Origin: Chlamydiia bacterium
Lineage (GTDB): Bacteria > Chlamydiota > Chlamydiia > Chlamydiales > Parachlamydiaceae
Assembly: GCA_038257035.1 (NCBI GenBank)
Contig: JBBSJT010000008.1
Location: 1-36,574 of the forward strand
DNA length: 36,574 nucleotides
Direction: 5' to 3'
The notes under the pieces were generated by a model. That model ran no database searches and had not been told where the DNA came from. It was given only the letters and a program-made list of their open reading frames with translations. The translations under genes were made by a program, and so were the position numbers. Below are positions 34,101 to 35,880 of this stretch, in pieces. How positions within the stretch are numbered: the first letter of the stretch is position 1; every line of letters starts with the position of its first letter.

Positions 34101-35880
34101 TTTCAAAGTTAGAAGTTGTATTCCAATAGGAGAAGAATAAGGAGATTAAATTTCCTCGCGAGTCAGCCGATGGTTCATCTATAAGAAGCGCGGGAGTTTT
34201 AAGCAATAAATAGGTGAGATAATTTGATTTATTTTCCTTTTTTCCAATTAAACAAAGTAGACTAAATCCTAACTGATTGATAACTGCAGTTTGATCTTCA
34301 CACCATTCAAAGAGAGTTTTTAAAAGATCACTGTCCGCATTATATCCCTCAAAACTAGAATCATCAACCTTATCTGGTGATTCAAATTTCAGGTATTGGG
34401 AGAAACTGTAAATTGTTTTTAGGATAAAATTTTTATAAATATTTGGGGCAGATAATAATTCTTTAAAATCTTTGCAAGCGTTAGAAATATCATCTTTAAC
34501 GTGAATGTAGAGAGGTTCTGTTAGATTAAACTTAAATTGTAGGTGTGGCTTTCCATTAATTGATGTTTTAAAAACCTGCAAATCAGGATGTATTGCATTT
34601 CCATTTAAATAGAGATATCCAAAAATTTGAAAGTAAGTTTGAATCCATTTAAAATGTATCTTTGCTTGGGATACTTCAAATTTCAAGGGGCTCATTGCAT
34701 GATAGAAATTTTCAAGAAATGAATTTTCAACCCATATAGTGTTTTTGCTCTGAATAAGTTCATTTCCAATAGTGAAGAAAAGATTTTTTTCCGCTGGTAG
34801 AAATTGACAAATATTAAAACAGAAAACAACAGGGGCAAAGGGATTGTTTGGGAAATGATTTTTTACGTTTTTTGATAAAAGAGTCTTGTCAAAAAATTCC
34901 ATGAATTTTGCAACAAGAATACTTTCAAGTTCATTTGATTGGAATCTCCAACCTTTTGTCAAATAAGTAAATAACCTTAAACTGCCTCTTAGATCAATTT
35001 GATCGATTTCATCTGCATTAATAAATTTTGTTAATCGTAAAATGGTCGATTCTAAAATAGATGGACCCATCAACCTTGCAACCCGTTGACAAGTAGTGTT
35101 TATATTTTCAAGTGTAATTTTAACGGCGTCATGTTTAAATAAATTTTCTCTTTCCATTGATTTAACAAATAGTAAATCCACAACAAATTCATCAGGATCA
35201 CCAAAAGAAACGATTCCAAAATGGTCTTGGTTGAAGGGAGATCTGCGAGTGTGATATTTAGTAAAGGCTTGGTTGTAGATCAGTTCTATTTTCTGCTCTT
35301 CCGTGTAACCTATATATTTGCTGGCTATTAGTTTGGTGGCAAAATATTTACAAATAGAAGTTTTAAATAGATCAGGATCGTCAATATAGGGGATGCGAAT
35401 ATCAAGGTCGGCAACTGGTTTATCAAAATCACACAATGAATTCAGTAATTCTTTTGGAATGTTTAAAATCTCACAGATTTTTTGCATATATTCTTTACCA
35501 AGCAACCAAAAAACGGAACTGCCAACTATTTCAACAGTATGCAATTTTAAAGAACGAAACAAATTTTTTAAAGAAATGGAAAATTCTAATTCTCCATTTT
35601 GTAATTTGATTTTTATAGGTTGGTGTAATAATTGACTTATTCTTCCTAGCTGATTTTCAGTAAAAATATTTTGGTTTAAGTCAAATATTTTCAAATTACC
35701 AAACTCATCGATAACATTTTGATTGATCAAGAAAGTAAAGATTTGAGCATGGATGGAATCTTTTTGATTTATAACAAGTGGGGGTAACGAAGAGGTTAGC
35801 AGATTATGCAACCCAGCATTAAAACTAGGGTTAAACCGTGGTATGAACTCTGGGGAATCTGATTTTAGAGGAGGAATCAT
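31195..35880 (-). CDS. 1561-aa protein with an N-terminal FAM46/TENT5-like nucleotidyltransferase domain and a long helical remainder; candidate effector
   Basis: Pol-beta-type motifs IVGSS (G120), DLD (D158/D160) and VDLLF (D235). The flanking segments parallel FAM46 as I recall it. Confidence 0.75.
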   Translation of the reverse strand: MIPPLKSDSPEFIPRFNPSFNAGLHNLLTSSLPPLVINQKDSIHAQIFTFLINQNVIDEFGNLKIFDLNQNIFTENQLGRISQLLHQPIKIKLQNGELEFSISLKNLFRSLKLHTVEIVGSSVFWLLGKEYMQKICEILNIPKELLNSLCDFDKPVADLDIRIPYIDDPDLFKTSICKYFATKLIASKYIGYTEEQKIELIYNQAFTKYHTRRSPFNQDHFGIVSFGDPDEFVVDLLFVKSMERENLFKHDAVKITLENINTTCQRVARLMGPSILESTILRLTKFINADEIDQIDLRGSLRLFTYLTKGWRFQSNELESILVAKFMEFFDKTLLSKNVKNHFPNNPFAPVVFCFNICQFLPAEKNLFFTIGNELIQSKNTIWVENSFLENFYHAMSPLKFEVSQAKIHFKWIQTYFQIFGYLYLNGNAIHPDLQVFKTSINGKPHLQFKFNLTEPLYIHVKDDISNACKDFKELLSAPNIYKNFILKTIYSFSQYLKFESPDKVDDSSFEGYNADSDLLKTLFEWCEDQTAVINQLGFSLLCLIGKKENKSNYLTYLLLKTPALLIDEPSADSRGNLISLFFSYWNTTSNFENFETVNFLKTISQENIKPNEILKAFCITFSAFNSPAALDFIFNTWETHIKNFDLDSNLRILHNLKTLNPYVSLKMIRKLCQLGVDERDLIPLFETVFNEYKKYSHQNLFLRDQELLSDVCLEIIGLMKNVKTVSDLSSFKSFIELVKYLIPLNFSKASLLLKKIESKSGLKNGFEIILNDIPENEKMELILQWHQKYPLNNKAHKNAFEERVNLLTKASCTNLDSRIIDEIFNLCTKFPTEALILKSKENLPVYELLIEKALVNNNLETAIDWLKTLLKICHTHHLTLFSFDAVYDRCIEQNKLIQAKDLLVFHENLWPDDIGHALKWKYLILTTIKCESDLKNLSQILKKTTDFADDPEIKIAIETVIKSLLKKPEIFKKNKDAFFLITKILQCFNINDLDVVKSLINALEFLSDKNLTEFAFLTLKEMNFSLLTLKSIFPLLLQLHSEHSLEFLTPDFEIKENAFDTITLLLNLLKNKTIESTEIEKHYLELRSKKCLTNEKQILIDLRYLRASMQRGDYSNLKVWDILEDVALKTKSKEHYRELSGFFITMITSFSKNKTIVDPTLELKMVRFLMYLETGSDNLIMVPFLNYLSVKSSINLMKVGVSIAYRIIKDCPFEKPSLLTKPYLDFKNALLKLININFEKNTLNNITQIISSKFLTNSQIFEIHGKISKTLFDNPETIKSEFTILMALESYLNNIKSPHESAKYAKDNMKGSIDCLLAVVFTHKNPTYYYQALGKILEGIIGYSELPKLNLTPNFPVKALVNGSKEEIKVMNQKIYDFLTSLIQAMIDKIVTGEDLDAAGIHIASKTIHHLLYLTPYDKKEETIRLLLDFCTVAQMLPKTHIELWLQEGAHIVEKLTQCGYLFRMPSDKEVESVFAIRMMTSHSLDCFIDYNEATQAKMIYNIIRLFSLSDGPSSILLAYKYFGLHLKLLTRHLPDECVELNNLLISRADHSYFNQSSIL

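Follow-up and report, generated by a model that had tools for sequence, protein, structure and literature searches.

We analyzed a 36,574-nucleotide stretch of a chlamydial genome (positions 1 to 36,574 of contig JBBSJT010000008.1, GenBank assembly GCA_038257035.1, a member of the Parachlamydiaceae), hereafter called the window. On its minus strand, positions 31195-35880 encode a protein of 1561 amino acids (aa), in which an earlier note, made from the sequence, had recognized a FAM46/TENT5-like noncanonical poly(A) polymerase domain. We consider it almost certain that this protein has the fold of the FAM46/TENT5 family and is homologous to it. The domain, which spans residues 67-383, is likely to be catalytically active, and what is new here is a divergent offshoot of the TENT5/FAM46 superfamily in bacteria, joined to a leader and to a giant solenoid. 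As an explanation of the whole protein, we favor with moderate confidence a genuine, probably active member of this superfamily that is secreted and tails host RNA. The parts of the gene to which we refer below are the following.

31195-35880, minus strand: giant open reading frame (ORF) of 1561 aa, with leader, FAM46/TENT5-like nucleotidyltransferase (NTase), linker module, and alpha-solenoid tail
35794..35880, minus strand: N-terminal leader, residues 1-29, unstructured in the AlphaFold2 model, with a predicted local distance difference test score (pLDDT) of <50
35683..35763, minus strand: family-specific N-terminal extension, residues 40-66, a conserved helix and short strands before the FAM46 fold
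35065..35682, minus strand: catalytic domain (NTase core), residues 67-272, with the FAM46/TENT5 fold in the VIA alignment
35518..35523, minus strand: hG[GS] motif, G120-S121, between strand 115-119 and helix 121-138
35401..35409, minus strand: D158-x-D160, predicted metal-binding aspartates on strand 158-163
35176..35178, minus strand: D235, third catalytic carboxylate, on strand 232-241, aligned with the TENT5 Glu
35149..35151, minus strand: R244, conserved Arg nine residues past the third carboxylate
34732..35064, minus strand: helical domain of the FAM46/TENT5 fold, residues 273-383, with model helices at 275-375 and a VIA alignment to FAM46B
34381..34731, minus strand: linker module, residues 384-500, with helices and a three-stranded sheet
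31198..34332, minus strand: alpha-solenoid tail, residues 517-1561, with ∼55 helices in the AlphaFold2 model

The span on which the earlier note was based, 34890-35660, corresponds to residues ∼74-331. We modeled residues 1-520 with AlphaFold2 from a 44-row alignment, with a pLDDT of 87.2 and a predicted template modeling (TM) score of 0.87. In a Foldseek comparison of this model with the PDB, ranks 1 to 10 were all occupied by FAM46/TENT5 structures (E values of 9.3e-12 to 1.5e-5; target-normalized TM scores of 0.62-0.67), and class II CCA-adding enzymes came next, with E values of at least 3.7e-4. We then ran VIA-align on Foldseek's top 1000 and obtained a Z score of 23.1 for FAM46B (6jyj_A), with a root mean square deviation of 2.9 Å over 288 of 329 residues. 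This alignment begins at model residue 67 and pairs residues 67-383 with residues 12-346 of the chain. Six further full-length TENT5 entries scored Z 21.3-22.4, and chain 8eqb_B, which contains the catalytic domain only, scored 15.3 against model residues 70-272. Scores were far lower for CCA-adding enzymes (Z 7.2-10.2), an aminoglycoside NTase (5.1), and TRAMP, TUT, GLD-2, and cGAS (≤4.8), and the BFVD viral fold library gave weak matches only (best E, 3.1e-4; target-normalized TM, ≤0.47). The NTase fold proposed in the earlier note was thus recovered, with Z 21-23 for TENT5 crystal structures versus ∼10 for CCA-adding enzymes. The model is predicted to have both the catalytic and the helical domain of the FAM46A/B/C crystal structures, and it places G120-S121, D158/D160, and D235 on secondary-structure elements in an NTase arrangement, the three acidic residues lying on the strands expected for such a fold.

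Searches with sequence profiles led to the same family. A profile built from 9 full-length relatives matched 7 of 177,635 PDB sequences at E ≤10, and the top six were TENT5A/B/C chains (best E, 5.2e-4). When a profile of 19 N-terminal domains (profile A3) was run against the same set, the six sequences listed were all TENT5A/B/C, with E values of 8.5e-14 to 4.8e-7. Hence the HMMER comparison that had been suggested as a check returned TENT5A/B/C as the best PDB matches, and not PcnB or CCA-adding enzymes. On this profile evidence, the homology of the window protein to TENT5 proteins is statistically significant, and profile matches and fold comparison agree on the FAM46/TENT5-like domain that had first been read from motifs. 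A single-sequence phmmer search with residues 1-360 retrieved only noise from the PDB (YaeO, E 0.18), and NCBIfam and PADLOC gave no meaningful match.

The six motifs on which the earlier note relied are all present, in the order given there, in the translation of the ORF, at residues 77-91, 116-127, 156-163, 205-209, 219-257, and 283-312 (counted by hand from the translation against numbered alignment residues). G120, S121, D158, D160, and D235 are likewise as stated there. We evaluated their conservation among the non-gap rows of a 78-row alignment of the first 520 residues and in a 44-row alignment. G120, D158, and D160 were each kept in 77 of 77 rows and in 44 of 44 relatives, although the relatives are otherwise only 20-40% identical; since these three residues are invariant, the motif set is not a product of chance. 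Position 121 is occupied by G in 40 rows and by S in 37. At position 235, 47 of 71 rows have D and 22 have E, with P and N in one row each. R244 is shared by 68 of 72 rows, and position 309 is basic (K or R) in 70 of 73.

A section of PMC7049688 describes the corresponding residues of Xenopus tropicalis FAM46B as Asp91, Asp93, Glu167, and Arg176, where Arg176 holds an inter-domain loop, and names a cleft pair, Glu179-Lys247. In HMMER alignments to TENT5 chains, D235 falls opposite the catalytic Glu, as had been supposed when D235 was said to stand in place of the FAM46 Glu, and the nine-residue spacing from carboxylate to Arg is common to D235/R244 and Glu167/Arg176. As for the collinearity of the six motifs with those of TENT5, HMMER pairs TENT5 segments with motifs 1, 2, 4, 5, and 6, and the strand with the DxD pair is linked to TENT5 through a second chlamydial clade, to which we now turn.

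Genome scans covered 300 genomes of the phylum from 165 genera. PF07984 (NTP_transf_7), the Pfam model of FAM46, matched 15 of the 300 at E ≤0.01 and 9 above its curated cut-off, and it matched none of 14 control genomes. The best matches lay in ORFs of 2100 aa (70.5 bits; genome G027 in our numbering) and 1561 aa (50.2 bits; G036). These Pfam-positive proteins are much closer to the eukaryotic family: the best domain matched human TENT5C with an E value of 4e-13 by single-sequence phmmer, and a profile of the clade (A5) matched TENT5A in the PDB at 3.2e-31. Pairwise BLASTP detected no similarity between the best Pfam-positive domain and that of the window protein (E 2.0), but hhalign of A3 against A5 gave a probability of 99.65% and an E value of 3.7e-25, and its 276 aligned columns bring the catalytic motifs into register. 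Furthermore, a 2539-aa ORF of G011, a Parachlamydiaceae metagenome-assembled genome (MAG), was matched by both the window-clade profile (E 2.7e-55) and PF07984 (33.9 bits). As judged from these alignments, the window clade is a divergent sister of the Pfam-positive chlamydial clade. The latter is found mostly in other chlamydial families, and a six-frame PF07984 search of the window's own genome gave no match above the cut-off. Either an A3 match or an above-cut-off PF07984 match is present in 43 of the 300 genomes.

We examined four Pfam-positive loci, L011 (G027:C32), L012 (G036:C10), L013 (G283:C117), and L014 (G011:C2). In L011, L012, and L014, the domain is N-terminal in ORFs of 1561-2539 aa, and L013 is a 572-aa frame at a contig end. 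In G011, the Pfam-positive ORF lies ∼7 kb from an ORF of the window clade.

The description of FAM46 as eukaryotic, which the earlier note had repeated, therefore needs correction for the 9 chlamydial genomes above the PF07984 cut-off and for one 482-aa relative of the window protein that has a precomputed PF07984 label; the window protein itself stays below the cut-off. The abstract of PMC7049688 calls FAM46 metazoan specific, and PMC4857005, in the part of the text used here, lists it in Metazoa, Choanoflagellida, Diplomonadida, and all sequenced Amoebozoa and states that its divergence is too low for the age this implies. By full-text search, which left subscription journals and supplements out of scope, we found no paper linking FAM46 to Chlamydiae, and the one paper listed for TENT5 together with chlamydia is an immunology preprint. 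Among publications on PF07984, NTP_transf_7, or DUF1693, none was about bacteria by its title or the opening of its abstract, and PMC4209131 is, in the part consulted, concerned with DUF294, a different domain from FAM46.

The family to which the window protein belongs is chlamydia-wide and consists mostly of giant proteins with an N-terminal NTase. A word-indexed search of 3236 candidates found 9 proteins, including the query, at E ≤1e-3; all were of 1461-1777 aa and had neither a name nor a Pfam label. With HMMER, residues 1-360 matched 74 of 1.84 billion representatives at E ≤1e-3, of which 30 reached ≤1e-10 and 13 reached ≤1e-30, and the match was N-terminal wherever the relative was full-length. 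We collected 78 proteins, 61 of which are of 1254-2527 aa and the other 17 shorter, mostly fragments. In the genome scans, profile A3 matched 36 of 300 genomes, which represent 29 of 165 genera, with 1 to 4 matches per genome, and 264 genomes had none. Apart from a few short ones, the matched open frames are of 1248-3464 aa. Matches occurred in 10 of 31 genomes of the window's own family group and were absent from three well-sampled family groups (0 of 62, 0 of 29, and 0 of 26). Several genomes (G011, G042, G186, G151, G168, and G006) had a pair of matches on the same contig, separated by a few kb. A pattern scan of genome contigs matched 65 stretches, with 1 confirmed relative, a Parachlamydiaceae MAG.

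Beyond the N-terminal part, the proteins vary. Similarity in the tail was detected by phmmer in 16 of the 78 proteins, query included, so the tails either change far more rapidly than the NTase head or are altogether different, and one relative carries C-terminal leucine-rich repeats (LRRs). The window's own genome encodes a paralog (G000:C31:8983-10242, L003) of 1722 aa, 41% identical over the N-terminal domain and with a homologous tail. A single-contig genome contains a 482-488-aa domain version (G228:C1:949955-951355, the same as P0043); its C-terminal part looks low-complexity and basic, and it may represent either a stand-alone form or a giant gene that has been truncated.

Compared with known enzymes, the window protein is most like TENT5A-D, with which it shares the two-domain fold, collinear motifs, hG[GS], DxD, the third carboxylate, and the Arg nine residues later. 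It differs in being bacterial and below the PF07984 cut-off where TENT5 proteins are eukaryotic, and in having Asp instead of Glu as the third carboxylate. Moreover, TENT5 proteins are free-standing (336-402 residues in the crystallized chains), whereas the window protein has a 66-residue N-terminal extension and ∼1,180 further residues. The Pfam-positive clade resembles the window clade in its phylum and in its N-terminal position in giant ORFs, and it differs in being much nearer to TENT5. Class II CCA-adding enzymes and poly(A) polymerase (PAP) I, the family of the PolyA_pol model (PF01743), share an NTase head and helical neck and form the second-best structural class; a passage of PMC7049688 notes that FAM46B resembles bacterial PAP and CCA enzymes and calls its overall fold, as a puzzle, "bacterial-like". 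They differ from the window protein in structure (Z 10 versus 23) and in sequence, as PF01743 matches neither the window protein nor the 36 relatives tested with Pfam, in which PF07984 was the only NTase family found. GLD-2/TUT/TRAMP-type PAPs and cGAS/CD-NTases have only the Pol-beta NTase core in common with it (Z ≤5 over ∼90-120 residues; no PADLOC match).

Several observations weigh against reading the domain as an active FAM46/TENT5 enzyme that tails host RNA. In a Pfam search of residues 1-360, which had been suggested as a further check, the sole match was PF07984 at residues 217-266, with 14.3 bits and an E value of 0.023, below the gathering cut-off of 27 bits. The six-frame search of the genome gave the window protein 12.4 bits for the same model, and PF07984 matched only 3 of the 36 relatives, at 25.5, 25.5, and 19.5 bits, all below the cut-off. 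In the ESM Atlas, there was no FAM46 cluster among the matches; the best, at 0.90, were unnamed viral clusters, and recognition was lower than usual. The fold comparison depends on a predicted structure, whose structure-based identity to TENT5 is 15-19%. In the HMM (hidden Markov model) alignment, Leu247 occupies the position of the FAM46B cleft residue Glu179, and the handling of nucleotide or RNA may therefore differ. Finally, secretion, RNA tailing as opposed to transfer of a nucleoside monophosphate to protein (NMPylation), the direction of gene transfer, and any bearing on the origin of TENT5 are inferences.

The mechanism we propose would run as follows. The disordered leader would direct the protein through a type III system into the cytoplasm of the host, an amoeba. 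There, D158, D160, and D235 would bind two divalent metal ions, and a nucleotide from a nucleoside triphosphate, by analogy with TENT5 most likely adenosine monophosphate (AMP) from adenosine triphosphate, would be transferred to the 3' hydroxyl of an RNA seated in the cleft that separates the catalytic domain from the helical one. The alpha-solenoid of ∼1,050 residues would select the partner, the site, or the class of RNA, and the bacterium would in this way alter the stability or translation of host transcripts. We put the chances that RNA is the substrate at about even, and we are similarly balanced on whether the protein is secreted into the host. The genome contains a type III export gate, matched by FHIPEP (SctV/FlhA family) with 751.9 bits, which, this being a chlamydial genome, probably belongs to an injectisome rather than a flagellum. 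The leader, a candidate type III secretion signal, has no signal-peptide-like hydrophobic stretch by reading of its sequence. The setting as a whole is effector-like, with the export gate, the disordered leader, the patchy distribution (36 of 300 genomes), adjoining copies, Sel1 and F-box neighbors, a relative with LRRs, and a tail whose likeness to the scaffold solenoids of eukaryotes is generic only.

Of the other explanations, the one that survives best, although we judge it unlikely, keeps the enzyme in the bacterium, where it would tail or repair chlamydial RNAs or serve another process, with the solenoid as an intrabacterial scaffold. It gains from the fact that secretion is deduced, and from PMC7049688, in which FAM46 is described as structurally similar to the PAP and CCA enzymes of bacteria, whose substrates are bacterial RNAs. 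Yet the window's own genome already has two canonical PolyA_pol-family genes (409 and 423 aa; 118.2 and 116.7 bits), so the giant protein is not a housekeeping replacement. Nor would an internal role sit easily with the 264 of 300 genomes in which no match was found, with an expansion to as many as four matches in one genome, frequently in adjoining ORFs, or with fusion to very long, fast-diverging tails (similarity in 16 of 78). Such patchiness, expansion, and fast divergence are more in keeping with host-interaction genes than with housekeeping genes.

Next comes a secreted NTase with an acceptor other than RNA, either a host protein, modified as in AMPylation, or a small molecule, which we regard as improbable. 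Some NTase-fold effectors of other intracellular bacteria nucleotidylylate non-RNA acceptors. NTase chemistry is generic, the window clade has Leu at the cleft position of FAM46B Glu179, and protein NMPylation had already been raised in the earlier note. Against such an acceptor, the model retains the whole two-domain architecture that forms the TENT5 RNA cleft (Z 23.1 over 288 residues, as predicted), R244 and the basic position 309 are conserved, and aminoglycoside NTase and cGAS-type enzymes do not exceed Z 5.1.

It is very unlikely that the domain is a catalytically dead mimic which binds the partners of host TENT5. Pseudoenzymes are common in NTase families, and this commonness, together with the low identity to TENT5, is what speaks for a mimic. 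The catalytic G and both Asp are nevertheless kept in 77 of 77 rows and a third carboxylate (D or E) in 69 of 71, in proteins of 20-40% identity. That the protein is an ordinary class II CCA-adding enzyme, a PcnB-type poly(A) polymerase, or an unrelated NTase with superficial FAM46 likeness has a negligible probability: CCA enzymes come second among the structural classes (Z 7.2-10.2; Foldseek E of 3.7e-4 or weaker), but TENT5 reaches Z 21-23 against 10, profile searches match TENT5 only, and the PolyA_pol model misses the window protein and its 36 relatives yet recovers the two real copies in the genome. The CCA/PcnB identity is thus excluded computationally by both the PDB profile search and the VIA comparison, each of which favors TENT5.

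In animals, TENT5/FAM46 proteins stabilize mRNAs that encode secreted proteins, and they are products of disease genes (multiple myeloma and osteogenesis imperfecta). We know of no described effector that acts by tailing host RNA, and our literature searches, with subscription journals and supplements out of scope, found no bacterial effector of this kind. A secreted, host-RNA-tailing enzyme would mean that host mRNA stability or translation is reprogrammed from within the inclusion, and the chlamydial family makes it testable whether an intracellular bacterium manipulates its host by tailing host RNA. The existence of chlamydial proteins with the TENT5 fold also makes the origin of TENT5 testable, through transfer between amoebae and chlamydial symbionts in either direction. 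A wider proposal, which we offer tentatively and hold to be rather doubtful, is that Chlamydiae have long harbored a diverse stock of TENT5/FAM46-type enzymes, the missing prokaryotic kin, and possibly the source, of a family that is described as eukaryotic although its structure has been called "prokaryotic-like", and that the giants are a new class of injected effector that tails host RNAs. The present assignment in any case provides a lead on the function of dozens of giant ORFs of environmental chlamydiae that carry no annotation.

We also analyzed the parts of the protein outside the FAM46/TENT5 fold. Residues 40-66 are conserved in the consensus of the relatives' alignments, and the model has a helix at 43-53. 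In the linker module, the model contains helices at 388-426, strands at 434-462, and helices at 465-496; the module lies outside the range of most structural matches, and no fold was assigned to it. AlphaFold2 modeling of residues 480-1561 from a 22-row alignment gave an all-alpha structure of ∼55 helices (pLDDT, 84.0; predicted TM score, 0.50), so that the helical C-terminal tail described in the earlier note is borne out in the model as an all-alpha solenoid. Foldseek returned generic solenoid matches for it (karyopherins, Ski3, FANCI, and IFT-A; TM ≤0.20), and no specific solenoid family follows from them.

An in-frame stop codon immediately precedes the ATG of the giant ORF, and the GC content of the gene, 0.28-0.31, is below that of most of the window. 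Past its stop codon, by ∼170 nucleotides, lies one further feature.

30979..31025, no strand assigned: hairpin with a perfect 20-bp stem, terminator-like

Because of this hairpin, the giant gene is probably the last of its transcript. Two soil-metagenome DNA runs contain part of the window, and no RNA run containing it was among the sequencing runs listed. Directly downstream of the giant gene is a 546-aa ORF (29099-30739, minus strand) without a Pfam match at E ≤1e-5.

The genome itself comprises 2.37 Mb in 210 contigs and is 95.8% complete, and the giant gene has bacterial neighbors on its contig. Four consecutive Sel1-repeat ORFs (395, 447, 476, and 345 aa) occupy positions 9479-14876 of the plus strand. 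A 448-aa ORF at 19052-20398 (plus strand) has an N-terminal F-box domain and is a eukaryote-like ubiquitin-ligase adaptor, a kind of protein expanded in Parachlamydiaceae. Two adjoining plus-strand ORFs, at 23173-24885 and 25140-26858, encode proteins of 570 and 572 aa that share 79% identity; neither has a Pfam match, both have a hydrophobic N-terminus, and from their sequences the pair looks like a recent tandem duplication of a probably exported protein. At 3070-6658 (minus strand), a 575-aa AAA_15/SMC_N-type ATPase is followed by three overlapping or abutting ORFs (320, 100, and 213 aa) without a Pfam match, and the group may be a small operon, perhaps of a defense-like system. At the contig end (36428-36574), GC-rich imperfect palindromes, one with 49-nucleotide arms of 80% complementarity and another pair with 27-nucleotide arms, form a unit that looks like a repeat element.

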